This document shows positions 5,461-37,050 of a DNA stretch of 64,000 nucleotides, one piece after another. Both the position numbers and the translations under genes were made by a program. Within the stretch, counting starts at the first letter, position 1, and each line of letters starts with the position of its first letter. A model generated the notes under the pieces. That model saw only the letters and a program-made list of their open reading frames with translations, was not told the origin of the DNA and did not search any database. Source of the DNA: Eledone cirrhosa (taxonomy: Eukaryota); the NCBI GenBank assembly GCA_964016885.1, contig OZ024742.1, positions 256,680,001-256,744,000 on the forward strand. The letters run 5' to 3'.

Positions 5461-5491
<31 letters not shown>

Positions 5492-5688
5492 GTACATACA
5501 TATACGTATACAGACGTACAGTAGTATGTATATATATATATACATACATGCACACATATATATATATGTACGTACGGATTCACCGAACATTTATTATAAT
5601 GCTCGGTGTGTTTGTAAACAAACATCCCGTATTAAGCCGTAGTGTCCTGCAACTATCGTTGCTCGTTTGTTCAACACTGACAAAGGTA

Positions 5689-5729
5689 CGCTGTACTGGT
5701 TTCAAGCTTATTAGCTATCGTCAGCAATG
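5689..5729 (-). ncRNA. Minimal type I hammerhead (R1)
   Basis: Reverse complement: cattg CTGACGA tagctaataagctt GAAA ccag TA cagcg; one stem I mismatch. Confidence 0.75.
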
Positions 5730-6273
5730 TATACCTTCCTGCCAGATTGTTGAACGTATATACTTACCTTATGCATATTAACACCTGAGAAGCCCAATTT
5801 GCATATCGAGTGGGTTAATCGGCCGGGTGCACCGAAAACGATAAACGGAAAAAATGAAACGAAATTTCATTTCCCAATCTTAGTACGGCTGTTACTTAAG
5901 TATATGTATGTACACGTACATACATATATGTATACAGGCGTACAGTAGTATGTATATATATATACATACATGCACACATATATATATATGTATGTTGTGG
6001 ATTCACCGACCATTTATTATAATGCTCGGTGTGTTTGTAAACAAACATCCCGTATTAAGCCGTAGTGTCCAGCAACCATCGTTGCTCGTGTACATATTTA
6101 TATTTAAGTAAAGGCCGTACTAAGAGTGGGAAATTAAATTTCGTTTCATTTTTTCCGTTTATCGTGTTCGGTGCACCCGACCGATTAACCCACTCGATAT
6201 GCAAATTGGGATTCTCAGCTGTTAATATGCATAAGGTAAGTAGATACGTTCAACAACCTGGCAGGAAGGTATA

Positions 6274-6314
6274 CGTTGCTGACGATAGCTAATAAGCTTG
6301 AAACTGGTACAGCG
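6274..6314 (+). ncRNA. Minimal type I hammerhead (R1)
   Basis: cgttg CTGACGA tagctaataagctt GAAA ctgg TA cagcg. Confidence 0.8.
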
Positions 6315-6704
6315 TTCCTTTGTCATGTTGAACAAACGAGCAACGATGGTTGCTGGACACTAAGGCTTAATACGGGATGTTTGTTTACAAACACACTGAG
6401 CATTATAATAAATGTTCGGTGAATCCATACGTACATATATATATATATATATATATGTGTGCATGTATGTATATATATATACATACTACTGAACTTCTGT
6501 ATACATATATGTATGTACGTGTACATACATATATTTAAGTAACAGCCGTACTAAGAGTGGGAAATGAAATTTCGTTTCATTTTTTCCGTTTATCGTTTTC
6601 GGTGCACCCGGCCGATTAACCCACTCGATATGGAAATTGGTCTTCTCAGCTGTTAATATGCATAAGGTAAGTATATACGTTCAACAATCTGGCAGGAAGG
6701 TATA

Positions 6705-6745
6705 CGTTGCTGACGATAGCTAATAAGCTTGAAACTAGTACAGCG
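6705..6745 (+). ncRNA. Minimal type I hammerhead (R1), palindromic stem III ACTAGT
   Basis: cgttg CTGACGA t-agc-taataa-gct-t GAAA ctag TA cagcg; GUA triplet. Confidence 0.88.
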
Positions 6746-7130
6746 TTTCTTTGTCAGTGTTGAACAGACGAGCAACGATGGTTGCTGGAGACTACGGCAT
6801 CATACGGGATGTTTGTTTACAAACACACCGAGCATTATAATAAATCTTCCGTGAATCCATACGTACATATATATATATATATGTGTGCATGTATGTATAT
6901 ATATATACATACTACTGTACGTCTGTATACATATATGTATGTACGTGTACATACTTATACTTAAGTAACAGCCGTACTAAGATTGGGAAATGAAATTTCG
7001 TTTCATTTTTTCCGTTTATCGTTTTCGGTGCACCCGGCCGATTAACCCACTCGATATGCAAATTGGGCTCCTCAGGTGTTAATATGCATAAGGTAAGTAT
7101 ATACGTTCAACAATCTGGCAGGAAGGTATA

Positions 7131-7171
7131 CGTTGCTGACGATAGCTAATAAGCTTGAAACTAGTACAGCG
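7131..7171 (+). ncRNA. Minimal type I hammerhead (R1)
   Basis: Identical to the motif at 6705-6745. Confidence 0.88.
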
Positions 7172-7432
7172 TTCCTTTGTCATGTTGAACAAACGAGCAA
7201 CGATGGTTGCTGGACACTACGGCTTAATACGGGATGTTTGTTTACAAACACACCGAGCATTATAGTAAATGTTCGGTGAATCCATACGTACATATATATA
7301 TGTGTGCATGTATGTATATATATATACATACTACTGTACGTCTGTATACACATATGTATGTTCGTGTACATACTTATATTTAAGTAACAGCCGTACTAAG
7401 AATGGGAAATTAAATTTCGTTTCATTTTTTCC

Positions 7433-7470
<38 letters not shown>

Positions 7471-7476
<6 letters not shown>

Positions 7477-8405
7477 AAAATTTCGTTCCACATCACTGAA
7501 TACAATATATGTAATCTGAGATTTTCGAATATTAAGAATAAAATTTGATTCGTTTGCAATTATGCAAACAAGCCTCAATTGTATAGCCAAGTGAGTAGAA
7601 TGAACACTCCATTCTTGCTTTTGTGTTGGCATGCGAACAGAACTGCAGACACTAATGTTCTGGGTATCACCTTTCATCAGTACAGCTCACTGTTCACCTG
7701 CCAAACTGTTAGAGCTAGTGAACATATATGCTATTTTCAAAAATACACAGTCACTGGTCGGCTTGATATGCATATTAACAGACTGGCTGATCAGTAAGAT
7801 CTGCATATTAGCAGATCCACTGATCAGCCATATTTGCATATCAGCAGACTGGCCAGTCAGTTTCCTGCATACGAGCGATAAATAGGCGGCTTTGCCAAAT
7901 TCAGAATAACAAAGAAAAATGAAGGGTTCGTTCTACTGACATGACAATAACATTGAGGCTTGTTTGCATAATTGCAAACGAAGCGTATGTTATTATTGAT
8001 ATTCGGAAAACACAGATTACATTCATTGTATTCAGCCTTGTTGAGCGAAATATTTTTATTTTATTTTGAATTTGGCAAAGTCGGCCATTTTACGCTCGTA
8101 CACATGAAACTGACTAGCCAGTCTGCTGATATGCAAATCTGGCTGATCAGTGGATCTGCTAATATGAGTATCTAACTGATCAGCCAATCTGCTATTATGC
8201 AAATCAGGCCGATCAGTCACTGTGAATGTTTGAAAATAGCATATGTTTCCACTAACTCTGACAGTTTGGTAGGTGAACATTCAGCTGTACAGAAACATTA
8301 GTGTCTGCAGTTCTGTTCATATGCCAACACAAGAGCAAGAATGAAGTGTTCATTCTACTGACATGGCTATAAAATTGCGGCTTGTTTGCATAATTGCAGA
8401 TTACA
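7471..8405. mobile_element. Retrozyme-like element R2: ~440-nt monomer; minus copy 7471-7919 plus terminally redundant plus copy 7920-8400
   Basis: 7920-7978 recurs at 8341-8398; arms are reverse complements; HHR at 7640-7688(-) lacks one A of GAAA; plus copy has the core deleted (~8290). Confidence 0.8.
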
Positions 8406-13415: not shown

Positions 13416-14062
13416 GCAAATTTAAACTCGTTCCAGAGGCAATCCAAACAGAAACGACAAGGAAACGAACAAGGCACGTGTTCTTGAATCCCTCGGCCGT
13501 TCCCCTGTATACATATACGTACATACATATATGTATACAGACGTACAGTAGTATGTATATATATACTTACATGCACACACATATATATGTACGTATGGGT
13601 TTACCGAACACTTATTATAGTGTTCGGTTTATTTGTAAACAGACATCCCGAATTAAGCCGTACAGTGTTTATCAAGCATCGTTGCTCTTTTGTTCAACAC
13701 TGGCAAAGGAACGATGCACTAGTTTCAAGCTTATTAGCTATCGTCAGCACCGTAAACCTTCCTGCCAGATGATTGAACTTCTGAAAGTATATACTTTCCT
13801 TATGCATATTAATGGCGGAGCAGCCTAATTAGCATATCGAGTGAGTTAATCAGCCGGGCGCACCGAAAACGATAAATGGAAAAAATGAAAGGAAATTTCA
13901 TTTCTAACTCTTAGTACGGCTGTTATTTAAATATTCCATTTATCGTTTTCGGTGCGCCCGGCCGATTAACTCACTCGATATGCAAATTAGGCGGCTCAGC
14001 CGTTAATATGCATCAGGAAAGTATATACTTTCAGACGTTCAATCATCTGGGAGGAAGGTATA

Positions 14063-14103
14063 CGGTGCTGACGATAGTTAATAAGCTTGAAACTAGTACA
14101 TTG
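14063..14103 (+). ncRNA. Minimal type I hammerhead (R1 subfamily b)
   Basis: cggtg CTGACGA tagttaataagctt GAAA ctag TA cattg. Confidence 0.82.
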
Positions 14104-14504
14104 TTCCTTTGCCAGTGTTGAACAAAATGGCAACGATGGTTGCTAAACACTGTACGGCTTAATTCGGGATGTTTGTTTACAAACAAACCGAACATTATAA
14201 TAAGTGTTCGGTAAATCCATACGTACATATATATATATATATTTGCATGTATGTATATATATATATATACATACTAGTGTACGTCTGTATACATATATGT
14301 ATGTACGTATACATACTTATATTTAAGTAACAGCCGTACTAAGAGTGAGTCAGAAATGAAATTTCGTTTCATTTTATCCATTTATTGTTGTCGGTGCCCC
14401 CGGCCGATTAACTCACTCGATATGCAAATTAGGCTGCTTAGCCGTTAATATGCATAGGGAAGGTATATACTTTCAGACGTTCAATCATCTGGCAGGAAGG
14501 TATA

Positions 14505-14545
14505 CGGTGCTGACGATAGCTAATAAGCTTGAAACAAGTACATCG
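14505..14545 (+). ncRNA. Minimal type I hammerhead (R1 subfamily b)
   Basis: cggtg CTGACGA tagctaataagctt GAAA caag TA catcg. Confidence 0.82.
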
Positions 14546-14685
14546 CTCCTTTGCCAGTGTTGAACAAAAGGGCAACGATGGTTGCTAAACACTGTACGGC
14601 TTAATTCGGGATGTTTGTTTACAAACAAACCGATCATAAAAATAAGTGTTCTGTAAATCCATACGCATATATATATATATATATA

Positions 14686-17032
14686 TGCAAAAGTTTTATT
14701 TAAGATTGTTGGGTTACAACGAGTAAATATTTTATAACTGATATAAAAGCACTCAACAGTTTCTGGAGTAGGTTTACGATATTAAACAAATGGAAACTAT
14801 ATTTATAAAACCATATTTATTTCGTTATATATATTTCTGGGATATCATATTAAAAATATGTTATGCCTTCCTCGGACAAATTACAATACATAAGCTGTTT
14901 TATAAATAATTAGTGACATACCTTGTAATAATGCAACTTCCTTTTAAAACGTTGATTTGGTAATGAAACTGTTATGATAGTTATATAGAAAGAAAACGAA
15001 ATGAGAAGAAGAAGATGAAGAGATGTATGTAAATAAAAAAGAAGAAGATGAAGAGATGTATGTAAAGAGAATAGAGATGTATGTAAAGAAAAACAACGGA
15101 GCGAGATAGAGAGACAAGGATAGAGGGAAATACATTGATGGTGAAAAAAACATAGTAGGCTTCTTTTTGACAGATGATCATCGTATATGTGAGAGGTTAA
15201 GGGAAGGGATACAGTTAGATTAGTGTATAGGAGAAAAAGAAAGAAAGATGATATATTTAAAATATATTAAAAATATATTATGTCTCATCCATTTGAATTA
15301 TCAATTTTTATGAATTAGGCATTATAATGTAAATATCAGTATTCATGAATGAGACACATATCTATAATGTGTAAAAAAATGACCACATGCTCAGTTTAAA
15401 AATTCTTAGGTCTATAAGCAAAATCTGAGACAAAACTTCAAACATAAGTATATATGCATTCTCGTGAAAAATGAGAAAAGAGAAGGTTATCTCAAATTCA
15501 AGTTGATAAATATAGACGCACATGTGAACCTACGTGATACGCTGCACTGATTCTTATATTTCATGAAAAACTTCAATGTGTCAGAAAAGAAAAACTTCAA
15601 TGCGTTAGAAAAGATTCCACCCTACATATATTTACATACATATATACATATATATAGACACAAAACATATAAGATATACATTAACATCTAAAATAATCAT
15701 CGATCAAGCATAGAGTAGACAACAGATATCAATATTAAAATTAAAAACGCCAAGAATATCTTCGTCACTCCTCAGAGTATCTAGGGACGCAAGAGAACAT
15801 AGTATGCCACGCATATCGGTCATAGAATCAGAGTCAAAAGTAAACAAGACCAAAATTGCTCACCAAGCCTTATCTATCAGAAATCATTCAAAACTTATTC
15901 TACAAATGCTCTTATATTTATTATAGAAGTTTATCCAGCTTAAAAATTTATTCAAAAGATTGGGAACAACGCCAATTTTAGGGTAGTTTATTTAATCTCA
16001 TTAATTATATATTCATGCGGAAAGGTTTTAAAAAAAAAAAAAAAAATTGAAGGAATCGAAAGATTTATCGCCAACTATCACAAATAGTCAAATACCTTAA
16101 GTAAATATACTACATTTTATACTACATTTTAAATTTATATTTATATTTAAATGTTGAGTTCAATCTATGTCTGCAACAGCTGAATAAATTGGTTCGTAAA
16201 TTAAGGGAATTTTTTGATTTTAATATAAAGAATATCTCCTCCGCGCAGAGGTCACAAGTCTCAGAAGAGGAATTAAAAGGAATCCCTTTTGAGACTATAT
16301 TCCAAACCATCGAATATCCAACTTTATCATGCTTAAGTTGCCAGAGTAACCATGACAGCGATGTTGATGATTTTTTATTTGGATCCTTGAAAGAATTTTT
16401 GTGATTATTATAGCGAAGTTTAAATTCTGTCGAGGTGGAACCAACATAATTAAAAGAATTTAAATCAGTTCTAACATTACAGTTGTATATTATATTTTTA
16501 ACTAAGCAATTGTTATTTAGCGGACATTTAGATCTATCTCTCCAGTTACAGTTTTTTAGTTGAATATTGTTTAGGCTATTTTCGGTATTTTGGCTAGGTT
16601 TTAGATTCCTATTATTTATTCTATTAATATTTTGTGCTAAATTTTTGGTGGACGAGTACGTTAATTTTATAGTATGTCTATTAAAAATTGAGTGATACTT
16701 ATGTGTTCTAGGGAAGCGTTTGTTAAGAGCATTAAAAAATAGTTTAGCGATGTGGGCTTTAATGTTTAGTGAGAAAGGGGGGGCAAACCATATTATATTT
16801 CTAGTTCTATTTCTTTTCTGGTTTTTGAAATTATTGTAGTGCTTTCTATTATAGTTGTTAAAGTTGTTACTGTAATTAAAATTGTTGTTATTTTGGTTAG
16901 TTTGTCTATTATCGATGTACATAATTTTATCACTATATCCTGCTCTAGCTAAAGCATCATTATAATATTAGGCTTTTTCGTCAAAAATATTTTTATTGGA
17001 AGAGATTCTAGAGATACGTTTTTGAACAGAGT
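14686..17032 (-). mobile_element. 5'-truncated PLE (thumb + GIY-YIG + ~1.4-kb 3' UTR)
   Basis: Contains ORF 16122-16922; degenerate HHR (CCGAGGA core) at ~14818-14885; (TA)n flanks. Confidence 0.85.
16122..16922 (-). CDS. PLE C-terminal region with GIY-YIG endonuclease (truncated)
   Basis: WFAPPFS..IFNRHTIKLTYS..CNW..CPL..CL..NIIY.C..YVGST..FK.RY.NH..CDLC.EE..LN..CCRH. Confidence 0.88.
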   Translation of the reverse strand: MYIDNRQTNQNNNNFNYSNNFNNYNRKHYNNFKNQKRNRTRNIIWFAPPFSLNIKAHIAKLFFNALNKRFPRTHKYHSIFNRHTIKLTYSSTKNLAQNINRINNRNLKPSQNTENSLNNIQLKNCNWRDRSKCPLNNNCLVKNIIYNCNVRTDLNSFNYVGSTSTEFKLRYNNHKNSFKDPNKKSSTSLSWLLWQLKHDKVGYSMVWNIVSKGIPFNSSSETCDLCAEEIFFILKSKNSLNLRTNLFSCCRHRLNSTFKYKYKFKM

Positions 17033-26091: not shown

Positions 26092-27235
26092 TGATAAAAT
26101 ATAGACACTATTTCCTCTCTAAATTAGCATAATTAACCACATAACAAATCAATTAGACCAGGCTATAAGAATAAAGGCTCCTATGAAGAAATATTTGATA
26201 AATAAACAAAGCTGCATCTTCGCGACTGACCGCAATAGAATATTTACCCAACACTTCAACAGCATGTAGAAATTGACTAAATATACCGTCAACCATACTC
26301 AATTAGTTATGAATTTAAAGTTAGAAGAAATGCGGATATTCTTACCGTAATTACGTCCCTACCATGGTTTGTTGATATTTGGGTAAATATTCTATTGCGG
26401 TCAGTCGCGAAGAGGCCGCTTTGTTTATTTATCAAATATTTCTTCATAGGAGCTTTTATTCTTATAGCCCTGTCTAATTGATTGTGTATGTGGTTAATTA
26501 TGTTAATTGGGAGAGGAAATAGTGTATATATTTTATTAAATGATTCTGTGGACATAATTGATATATTATATTGATATATTGCTCTGATTATTTAATTTAT
26601 TAATTCTTCATTGAGCCACATCGTGAACGTTTGCCGCATATATATCTGTGACGTTGCATATATGTAAATCTTTATATTTAATAATCTCCCACTCTGTTGA
26701 GATGCAATTTGGGCGATATTCGGCTGCGCTTTCTAGCAACCAGCCTACTCGCCGTAAGCAACTAATCACATTCTTTCTAACTTGAACACTGCCACGTCAC
26801 GATTCTTAGCCATTTTTAAAATCTATTCCTGGCGTGGATCGCTTTGGAAAATTAACTGTCCTATTGAGTTAGTCTCCTGACGAGTTCGATACTCGAGATT
26901 TATCCTTAATAGGATAACTTAAAATACAAACGAAACCATGGTATGGACGTAATTACGGTAAGAATGTGCGCATTTCTTCTAACTTTAAATTTATACCTAA
27001 TTGAGTATGGCTGACGGTATATTTAGTCAATTTCTACATCCTGTTGAAGTGTTGGGTAAATATTCTATTGCGGTCAGTCGCGAGGAAGCCGCTTTGTTTA
27101 CTTATCAAATATTTCTTCATAGGAGCCTTTATTCTTATAGCCTGTTCTAATTAATATTTTATGTGGTTAATTATGCTAATTGTGAGAGGAAATAGTGTAT
27201 ATATTTCATCAAATGATTCTGTGGACATAATTTAT
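26092..27235. mobile_element. Retrozyme-like element R3: 673-nt terminally redundant monomer plus inverted partial copy
   Basis: 26381.. recurs at 27054..; 26092-26370 is the reverse complement of ~26933-27212. Confidence 0.8.
26872..26948 (+). ncRNA. Type I hammerhead with extended stem II and palindromic CATG loop III
   Basis: gtctc CTGACGA gtt..ttatcct-taat-aggataa..aac GAAA c-catg-g TA tggac; the inverted copy has gggac, restoring stem I. Confidence 0.75.
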
Positions 27236-29196: not shown

Positions 29197-29947
29197 AATT
29201 CACAAGAATCCAATCTATGTTCAAAGCATTTATTCACTTACAATTGTTTCATCCAAACCTAGGCTTGAAGTCTTCGGAGCATTTTTCAATGTTTGTACAC
29301 ATGATTGATCTCCTTTCCGCCGCAAGAGACATACAGATACATATTTATATATTGATGTACAGTGTAGTAACATATATTATATTATATTTCTGTATATAAA
29401 AATCATAATCAAAGAAAAATTAAAATACAATCGGCAGTTAACAGAGATATTGCAAGAGGATAGTTTGTTAGTCAGATGTATTAGTTATTTTAGTTATTTT
29501 ATGCGTTAGTTACACGTGGGGCATACTCGTGTGTCTCATTTATATATGATTATTGTGCGCAGGGTGTTACATGTAATAGAAGCACTTAAAGCGGGTAAGT
29601 AAGAGTATTATGGAGGTTGTAGTGGTAAGGTATTTTTTGTATATGATACAGAAGTATGCGTGTAAAGGAGAAGCAAAAGAAAGTTATGGTTTTTGTATCC
29701 ACAACCATTTTCACATTCAAGAAACGTAATATATCCTTCACATAATTAACGGTGATTTCGCATTGGAGGTTTGATGCATTACATTAAATTATTTTAGCTT
29801 GCTGCGGCTCAGTCTTTTTAATCCAATTTAGGAGGTCAATCATGTGTAGAAACATTAAAAAATGCTCCGAAGAAACCAAGCCTAGGTTTGGATGAAACAA
29901 TTGTAAGTGAATAAATGCTTTGAACATAGCTTTGATTCTTGTGAATT
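29197..29947. mobile_element. Non-coding element with ~97-bp inverted arms, each with a CCGA-core HHR (29235-29282 minus; 29863-29909 plus)
   Basis: gct CCGAAGA ..aagcc-ta-ggttt.. GAAA c-aatt-g TA agt in both arms. Confidence 0.72.
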
Positions 29948-36364: not shown

Positions 36365-37050
36365 CGGATAAATGGCCGGCTTTGTCACATTCAAATAGAA
36401 AAAAAAATTCCGCTCTACATGGCTGATTACAATAAATGTAATCTGAGATTTTCGAATATAAATAACAACTTTCGATTCGTTTGCAATTATACAGACAAGC
36501 CTATTTTATTTTTTATAGCTATGTCAGTAGAATAAACCCTTCATACTTGCTCTTCTGTTGGCATGTAAACAGAACTACAGACCCTAATGTGTCTGGGTAT
36601 CACCCTTCATCAGTACAGCTCACTGTTCACCTGCCAACTTTGCCGGCCCTTTATCGCTCGTATGCAGGAAACTGACTGGCCAGTCTGCTGATATGCAAAT
36701 CTGGCTGAGCAGTGGATCTACTAATATGCAGATCTGACTGATCAGCCAGTCTACTAATATGCATATCAGGCCGATCAGTCACTGTATAGTTTAGAATATA
36801 GCATATATTTTTACTAGCTCTGACAGTTGGCAGGTGAAGAGTGAACTGTACTGATGAAGGGTGATACCCAGAAACATTAGTGTCTGCAGTTCTGTTTACA
36901 TGCCAACACAAGAGCAAGAATGAAAGGTTCATTCTACTGACATGGCTATACAAATGAGGCTTGTTTGTATAATTGCAAACGAATCGAATCTTATTATTAA
37001 TATTTATTATATTTATTATATTCAGCCATGTTGAGTGAATTTTCTTTTAA
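36365..37050. mobile_element. Second R2 insertion (minus arm 36365-36640, plus arm 36641-37050)
   Basis: Homologous to 7471-8405 but starting at a different point of the monomer. Confidence 0.82.
36843..36892 (+). ncRNA. Canonical type I hammerhead (R2)
   Basis: gaactgta CTGATGA a-gggt-gat-accc-a GAAA ca-ttag-tg TC tgcagttc; 8-bp stem I, GUC triplet. Confidence 0.92.

Follow-up and report, generated by a model that had tools for sequence, protein, structure and literature searches.

Most hammerhead ribozymes of metazoans belong to type I: helices I and II comprise 6 and 4 pairs, respectively, and helix III has 1-2 pairs and carries a palindromic loop of 2-4 nucleotides (nt) (PMC4209133). The short helix III blocks efficient cleavage of the monomer, and activity is gained when copies in tandem fold as a dimer (Forster et al. 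1988, cited in PMC4209133). By this dimer logic multimers are cut and circular monomers are spared (PMC4209133). Repeats of the axolotl show weak cleavage as monomers and are cut much better as dimeric constructs; among their motifs, HHR_Amex1 bears a palindromic tetraloop on a helix III of a single pair, and HHR_Amex2 has U.U at the base of helix II (PMC7229834). Animal retrozymes of the kind without long terminal repeats (non-LTR retrozymes) are defined as tandem repeats of ~150-450 base pairs (bp), which each contain a type I hammerhead, have a GC content below 50% and lack both LTRs and coding capacity (PMC7229834). It has been argued that animal retrozymes are non-autonomous derivatives of Penelope-like elements (10.64898/2026.07.22.740005), the signature of which is a partial tandem with an adjacent inverted 5'-truncated copy placed head-to-head, and a bias to (TA)n (PMC8557442). 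Here we describe R1, a hammerhead-bearing tandem repeat in a stretch of 64,000 nt of Eledone cirrhosa DNA (assembly GCA_964016885.1, contig OZ024742.1, positions 256,680,001 to 256,744,000 of the forward strand; hereafter the window). We suggest, with a probability of about 0.65, that cleavage of R1 depends on a second copy, with which the ribozyme would pair through the palindrome ACUAGU to form a double hammerhead.

R1 has a unit of 426 nt and one hammerhead per unit on the plus strand (window 6087-7438); the span 6705-7171 is one such unit flanked by two ribozymes. Both of them (6704-6746 and 7130-7172) read ACGTTG CTGACGA T AGCT AATA AGCT T GAAA C TA G T A CAGCGT. Of the three helices only helix I is open, II and III being closed, which makes the motif type I. 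Its helix III consists of A15.1-U16.1 and C15.2-G16.2 around the letters UA and is followed by A17. An earlier note on this DNA had described a helix of 2 bp closing a 2-nt loop, and this description is borne out at both sites; so is the self-complementarity of ACTAGT (6734-6739 and 7160-7165), which is its own reverse complement. The note had also called double hammerheads with a palindromic helix III an established design, and they are indeed published for metazoan type I hammerheads (PMC4209133, PMC7229834).

The conserved core, CTGACGA together with GAA, is kept in all seven R1 copies of the window (C3 at 6279, 6710, 7136, 14068 and 14510 on the plus strand, at 5724 and 13747 on the minus strand). 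A15.1...U16.1 followed by A17 is present in six of the seven, the exception being 13747(-) with G at position 17. Helix III reads ACUAGU in four copies and ACUGGU, with a G.U pair, in one; the other two have ACCAGU and ACAAGU. The loose core CTGANGA-N(6-30)-GAAA occurs 16 times in the window versus 0.73 times expected (0 of 100 shuffles reach 16), and R1 copies account for 7 of these matches.

The predicted helices I and II of the R1 hammerhead are backed by compensatory changes. The covariation set comprised 20 cassettes (16 distinct rows): R1 copies from the window and from flanks of 200 kb, members of an older R1 subfamily and of a second repeat family with a 310-nt unit (family C), and a few genomic relatives. 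Standard pairs fill 96.6% of the cells in the 16 distinct rows, a value reached by none of 500 shuffles, while slid controls give 23-42%. Changes on both sides are found in 10 of 13 pairs, and compensatory changes in 6/6 pairs of helix I and 3/4 pairs of helix II. Four of the rows (L023, L024, L035 and L040) were chosen via pattern searches that fix or favour the central letters, which biases the central column pair of helix III, and this pair was not used. A contig of another, related species (X5) spans 6677-6766 and differs within the 43-nt ribozyme only at 2.3/1.3, at N7 and in loop 2; the change at 2.3 and 1.3 is compensatory (U.G to G.U). Among the 40 of 54 rows listed, X5 has no difference at 6735-6740. 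X5, as well as X1 and X4 mentioned below, are contigs of uncertain kind, probably DNA.

By nearest-neighbour rules a hairpin loop needs at least three letters. The two pairs of the R1 helix III would cap a loop of two, and therefore this helix cannot close alone. The best predicted fold of an isolated 51-mer (-8.6 kcal/mol) is inactive, with C3-U4-G5 paired with letters of helix III, and a hammerhead-like fold limited to helices I and II has -7.2 kcal/mol. The domain-swapped dimer of the 51-mer reaches -20.4 kcal/mol versus -14.4 kcal/mol for two monomers (2 x -7.2). In this predicted double hammerhead, which is fully nested, helix III has six pairs (-4.8 kcal/mol for the ACUAGU duplex alone) and each core faces the cleavage site and the helix I strand of the partner copy. 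For the transcript 6690-7190 the minimum free energy is -143.9 kcal/mol, with -143.7 for the double hammerhead with unpaired cores and -137.3 for two single ones; a two-unit transcript with slightly different flanks gives -144.2, -143.7 and -138.2, respectively. The predicted double hammerhead is thus 0.2-0.5 kcal/mol short of the minimum, and it is more stable than two singles by 5.5-6.4 kcal/mol.

The same calculations describe the unit as a rod. The circular 426-nt unit folds with -120.0 kcal/mol (z = -5.3 over 50 mononucleotide shuffles), helix I extends into a long stem (6741-6765 with 7105-7135), and the closing stem is built from the 1.x strand upstream and the 2.x strand downstream. 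In the double structure the inner ribozyme costs nothing extra, because its helix I is this closing stem. A second R1 pair (L013) gives a difference, double minus single, of -3.9 kcal/mol, and in family C, where the difference is -6.8, no predicted fold is lower in free energy than the double one. In two natural pairs with an imperfect palindrome the double fold is disfavoured, by +1.4 and +2.3; these pairs differ elsewhere in the unit too and are not clean controls.

The second line of evidence is the comparison of hammerhead families over 264 kb, i.e., the window plus flanks. The descriptor used for the scan constrained helix III only by A15.1, U16.1 and a position 17 other than G. It gives ten families with a hairpin-like helix III, six of which are Watson-Crick self-complementary: ACUAGU in R1, ACGCGU in family C, ACUAAUUAGU at L003, AUGCGCAU at L005 and AUAUAUAU in two unrelated families. 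Two more are self-complementary with G.U (AUAUGUAU and ACAUUAGUGU), one has the odd-length ACAUUGU, and one has a stable stem of four pairs with a non-palindromic loop. If a loop is palindromic with p = 1/4, at least 6 self-complementary families out of 10 are expected with a probability of 0.02; with p = 1/16 the probability is 1e-5. A palindrome alone is weak evidence: with the two closing pairs fixed, 4 of the 16 central dinucleotides are self-complementary. Family C shares with R1 a common cassette (U-helix II-U, loop AAYA, GAAAC-NN-GUA). A comparison of the two units shows no similarity beyond the ribozyme, and within the ribozyme all helix I pairs and 3/4 of the helix II pairs differ, with GC in the centre in family C versus UA in R1.

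We propose the following sequence of events. R1 RNA would be transcribed and would be self-cutting. Two copies would pair through ACUAGU and swap their helix I strands, thus forming the double hammerhead, which would cut after A6740 and A7166. In this structure the downstream ribozyme would supply the core that cuts the upstream site, with helix I of the upstream ribozyme provided by the closing stem of the unit's rod. The freed 426-nt units would then be circularised by a host ligase, and the circles may be copied back into (TA)n sites by the enzymes of a Penelope-like element, as proposed for animal retrozymes. The dimer reading is the best available one and is partly supported, the backing coming from the fold energies and the cross-family comparison. 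As for the proposal of the earlier note that adjacent units pair, the nested double fold near the minimum energy and the palindromes across families speak for it, but no signal of selection is seen within R1. Its further claim, that only multimeric transcripts cleave, cannot be separated from the pairing of two separate RNAs.

We also consider, as a possible though doubtful extension, that any two-unit R1 transcript rests in the double hammerhead fold and that ACUAGU acts as a count-to-two switch. The ground for it is that the unit's own rod is closed by the inner helix I. If this extension were true, the RNA would be cut only after a second complete unit has been transcribed, and circles and the numerous single-unit insertions would remain uncut. 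Co-resident families would be kept apart by matched central changes: UA in R1, GC in the 310-nt family and AU in an R1 sublineage.

Several observations weigh against the dimer reading. The pair G10.1-C11.1 at the base of helix II is absent in R1, where U6717 faces U6730, and U.U in this place means a weaker helix II (PMC7229834). No Rfam hammerhead model matches R1, either in the window at the gathering score or in 6660-6800 at E up to 10. This miss says little, because the models likewise miss two other descriptor-positive hammerheads of the window, 58990(-) and 36851(+), one of which has a four-pair helix III. Activity predicted from sequence is often not borne out: cleavage products were absent with 8 of 9 Xenopus dimer constructs (10.64898/2026.07.22.740005), and minimal Penelope-type dimers of S. 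mansoni cut weakly (PMC4209133). In ~10,900 R1 copies the central letters are changed in 1.4% and 1.7%. For C15.2 the figure is 2.8%, and for G16.2 plus U16.1 it is 4.3% in sum. Changes of the first central letter give AA in 50, CA in 33, GA in 12 and other combinations in 5 cases (first 100 of 156), and those of the second letter give TT in 46, TG in 41 and TC in 13 (first 100 of 182). The two spectra are mirror images, as in strand-symmetric mutation of a palindrome, and therefore look neutral. The wobble-keeping TG is not significantly favoured over CA in the same span of the genome (41 vs 29, p = 0.19), and double central changes of the R1 type are palindromic and non-palindromic at ~4 loci each. 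Within R1, no selection for the palindrome is visible, as the central variation is not below that of the neighbouring letters and is strand-symmetric. The share of ~90% for ACTAGT appears to reflect a young family and not demonstrable selection.

A rival explanation is that R1 cuts as a monomer and the palindrome is incidental. The monomer might be active with one A-U pair and a tetraloop CUAG, or through stacking on helix II and contacts of loop AAUA with a GGUAU bulge beside helix I. The lack of a selection signal in the central letters agrees with it, and so does the published behaviour of other retrozymes: most invertebrate ones, with two pairs and a tetraloop in helix III, self-cleave efficiently as singles, and even axolotl monomers cut slightly (22% in one hour for Rtz_353) (PMC7229834). 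However, with four letters between A15.1 and U16.1, R1 falls into the very weak axolotl/newt type and not into the invertebrate type (PMC7229834). The best fold predicted for the single 51-mer is inactive, as described above, and cleavage as a monomer gives no reason for the excess of self-complementary helices III across families. We regard this explanation as unlikely.

Equally unlikely, in our judgement, is that the motif is an inactive relic, i.e., that R1 was spread or homogenised as DNA, or copied by the enzymes of a retroelement with self-cleavage not required, its uniformity being that of youth. A young unconstrained family would fit the per-site change of 1.4-2.8% across helix III and the unit identity of 93-96%, and the replacement of G10.1-C11.1 by U.U, the absent Rfam match and the inactivity in vitro of 8 of 9 predicted Xenopus dimers (10.64898/2026.07.22.740005) point the same way. 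Against it, subfamilies that are 83-86% identical and the contig of the other species keep the whole core, with only compensatory or permitted changes in the ribozyme, and family C retains the cassette in an unrelated unit with all helices re-paired. The re-pairing in family C and the kept cores indicate that the fold was under selection in those lineages which multiplied. Finally, it is highly improbable that ACTAGT is a chance palindrome or a DNA-level site for a protein or nuclease, with no role in RNA pairing: with the closing pairs fixed, a quarter of the central dinucleotides are self-complementary, and R1 alone shows no covariation at the palindrome, but families in the same 264 kb carry different strings at the same structural place (ACGCGT, ACTAATTAGT, ATGCGCAT, ATATATAT and ACCATGGT), and therefore a rule of RNA pairing fits better than one DNA site.

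Turning from the ribozyme to the element, R1 is abundant. The genome of 3.0 Gb contains the exact 25-letter string from the core to GAAA 11,743 times, which is a lower bound on intact R1 cores; C15.2 is kept in 11,409 of these, and CTAGT comes next in 10,575. For the array at 6087-7438 Tandem Repeats Finder (TRF) gives a period of 426, 3.2 copies and 93% matches, and blastn gives unit identities of 93-96%. The three ribozymes of the plus arm are spaced 426-431 nt on one strand. R1 is non-coding, the longest open frame in the array having 75 amino acids, and the GC content is 37.6% in the unit and 31.8% in the window, which is AT-rich and crowded with (TA)n-type microsatellites. By period, copy number, GC content and longest frame R1 has the sequence features of non-LTR retrozymes, and it is very probably a hammerhead-bearing repeat of the retrozyme type. 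The features of the two R1 loci of the window are collected in the table.

Table. R1 features of the window, in window coordinates
Feature	Position	Strand	Details	Basis
Hammerhead 0	6273-6315	+	Helix III ACUGGU 6303-6308, self-complementary only via G.U; predicted cut between 6309 and 6310	
Hammerhead a	6704-6746	+	Predicted cut between 6740 and 6741	sequence, pair list, covariation
Hammerhead a, helix I	6704-6709 with 6741-6746	+	6 pairs	
Hammerhead a, core	6710-6716	+	CUGACGA (C3-A9)	
Hammerhead a, helix II	6718-6721/6726-6729	+	4 pairs AGCU/AGCU, loop AAUA; flanking U.U is U6717 and U6730	
Hammerhead a, GAA (G12-A14)	6731-6733	+	Followed by ACUAGU 6734-6739 and A17 at 6740	
Hammerhead b	7130-7172	+	43/43 letters the same as in a; ACUAGU 7160-7165; predicted cut between 7166 and 7167	
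Unit, cut site to cut site	6741-7166	+	426 nt, RNA that two predicted cuts would release	
R1 plus arm	6087-7438	+	Unit positions 204-426, two full units, 1-279	TRF, blastn
R1 inverted arm, head-to-head with plus arm	5477-6089	-	Unit positions 28-426, then 1-219	blastn
Inverted-arm hammerhead	C3 at 5724	-	Helix III ACCAGU; A.C mismatch in helix I	
(TA)18	7436-7471		Directly after the plus arm, which ends at unit position 279	
(TA)n	5461-5567		Outer end of the inverted arm	
Second, older R1 insertion, two-armed	13514-14689		83-86% identical to the unit; other breakpoints	blastn
Older insertion, minus arm	13934 down to 13514	-	Hammerhead 13747, position 17 is G	
Older insertion, plus arm	13934-14689	+	Hammerheads 14068 (ACUAGU) and 14510 (ACAAGU)	

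At both loci the R1 insertion is two-armed. The arms join at ~6087-6089 and at 13934, respectively, and the outer ends lie in TA-rich repeats. Two-armed insertions also occur in the flanks (R1 at L001, the 310-nt family C at L012), and among the first 100 genomic R1 places there are 8 divergent minus/plus pairs less than 700 bp apart and no convergent ones (p = 0.008). Many copies of R1 stop with CCGTTTAT at unit position 279 (corresponding to window 7019/7438) and (TA)n comes next; this end is seen in 49 X1 contigs and 4 X4 contigs. The shared end points to a site where reverse transcription, or priming on (TA)n targets, preferentially ends. Judged by its sequence, the shape of the R1 insertions matches what Penelope-like elements leave.

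An autonomous partner, with a reverse transcriptase and GIY-YIG and carrying the R1 terminal sequence, was not found. At L041, where two R1 copies lie 4.6 kb apart, only RVT_1 fragments below the cut-off and no nuclease domain were seen. These fragments, at L041:943-1818 (-) (G000:C1:22595442-22596317), score 26.3 and 21.4 bits (cut-off 29.6) and stand directly upstream of a same-strand R1; they may be chance neighbours or the decayed end of an autonomous element. An Atlas look-up gives generic reverse transcriptase clusters only.

Other hammerheads of the region can be described alongside R1. Family C lies ~13 kb past the end of the window (L012:2975-5643, G000:C3) as a 310-nt tandem with 7 minus and 3 plus hammerheads arranged head-to-head. 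A helix II flanked by U...U is combined with a stable four-pair helix III (ACAG-UUCUAGUC-CUGU) at 58928-59005 (-), L011:319 (-), L011:1486 (+) and L005:1523 (-); this family is likely a monomer-type relative beside the dimer-type families. At 48805-49122 two identical hammerheads with the helix III AUAUAUAU face apart by ~245 bases in a two-armed arrangement, which adjoins a 1.4-kb (TA)n at 49180-50636. A small two-armed array of an R1b-type sublineage, with 3 minus and 1 plus copies and the helix III ACAUGU, is found at L023 and L024 (G000:C1:319893995-319896432); in it both central letters are altered and the palindrome is retained.

The earlier note had listed palindromic loops III at further sites of the window. 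Those with ATAT stand, as 21421+ and 49086+/48841- read GAAA-TATATAT-A, and the region at 26872 reads ACCATGGT, in agreement with the claim. At 29863 the region does read ACAATTGT, but the core is CCGAAGA, with U4 changed. The site at 54063 (-) has ACGATCGT after GAAA but no CUGANGA core in the 90 bases upstream, and as a hammerhead it was not upheld. The descriptor missed 25794, 23262, 30340 and 26872, which have defects in helix I, and 29863, with its change in the core, and these were read by eye. Five of its matches were dropped as due to chance, because the 12-24 letters of their 'helix III' do not fold into a hairpin (L004:5047, L005:4910, L014:5365, L020:2475 and L020:3008). Alternative registers for 13747, 14068 and 14510 were dropped as well; the stricter run reads 14068 as ACTAGT and 14510 as ACAAGT.

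Searches of the genome for the same cassette gave 15 and 27 matches, with central AT the commonest (10/15 and 18/27). We rejected these cassettes as clean independent families, as they are mostly decayed copies. At least 4 helix I pairs in the R1 register are kept by 5 of the 20 fetched cassettes, and the GGAT/ATCC cassette group probably has a longer helix III (ACAUGUGU).

The window holds further features apart from the hammerheads. A frame of 176 amino acids at 39797-40327 (+) matches RVT_1 (E 1.9e-12, 47.8 bits) and is a retroelement remnant. A stop-to-stop frame of 633 amino acids at 61893-63794 (-) has no Pfam match and adjoins a 2-kb AT microsatellite. A 33-base tandem repeat occurs in ~3 copies at each of 7765-7853, 8122-8219 and 36684-36781, the first two just after the R1 array and the third just upstream of the hammerhead at 36851. 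The relaxed Rfam search of the whole window, of which the best 150 of 589 matches were listed, is dominated by microsatellite look-alikes (mir-297 etc.), with no hammerhead family among those listed. Hundreds of sub-threshold matches to mir-297, mir-3149, mir-1277 and the like occur, e.g., at 5901-5987, 6447-6529 and 54580-54650. They were rejected as microRNA genes: they are TA/TG microsatellite hairpins and reach at most 55.8 bits versus the gathering score of 90.

The dimer design, its regulatory logic and the shape of the insertions are all already published, and the reading of R1 given here is not new in this respect. The 30-letter core string of R1 was not found in the text of the searched literature, figures and supplements being outside the search. 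What R1 adds is a large family not found in print, with at least 11,743 cores, clear units and natural variants of the palindrome. Together with a sister family that has another palindrome, it forms a natural test set for the double-hammerhead idea of 1988. It is also suited to examining the connection proposed for animal retrozymes with Penelope-like elements; existing knowledge is unchanged by it.

Among the known systems, avocado sunblotch viroid has a hammerhead whose helix III is too weak to sustain one motif by itself, and its multimeric replication intermediates are cut via a double structure. Unlike this viroid, which is an autonomously replicating infectious RNA with a type III hammerhead, R1 has a type I hammerhead and resides in nuclear DNA. 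R1 is closer to the metazoan type I double hammerheads, which it resembles in the sizes of the helices, the palindromic helix III, the tandem repeats and the proposed logic. It differs from the usual ones in having U.U where G10.1-C11.1 stands, and its activity is a predicted one. Compared by description and not by sequence, R1 joins in one motif the weak features of HHR_Amex1 and HHR_Amex2. Its unit has 426 nt versus 330-350 in the axolotl, and it occurs as short two-armed arrays in (TA)n, whereas the axolotl repeats form long satellite blocks (Cervera and de la Pena 2020, PMC7229834). Copy numbers running to tens of thousands are a shared feature. Unlike Penelope-like elements, R1 carries no reverse transcriptase or GIY-YIG frame in its array, where no frame exceeds the 75 amino acids given above, and its helix II has 4 pairs versus 6-8 in the minimal Penelope motifs. 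With the hammerheads in the pseudo-LTRs of these elements, however, R1 shares the palindromic 15.2-16.2 and loop 3, the head-to-head partial tandem and the bias to (TA)n (PMC4209133; Craig et al. 2021, PMC8557442).

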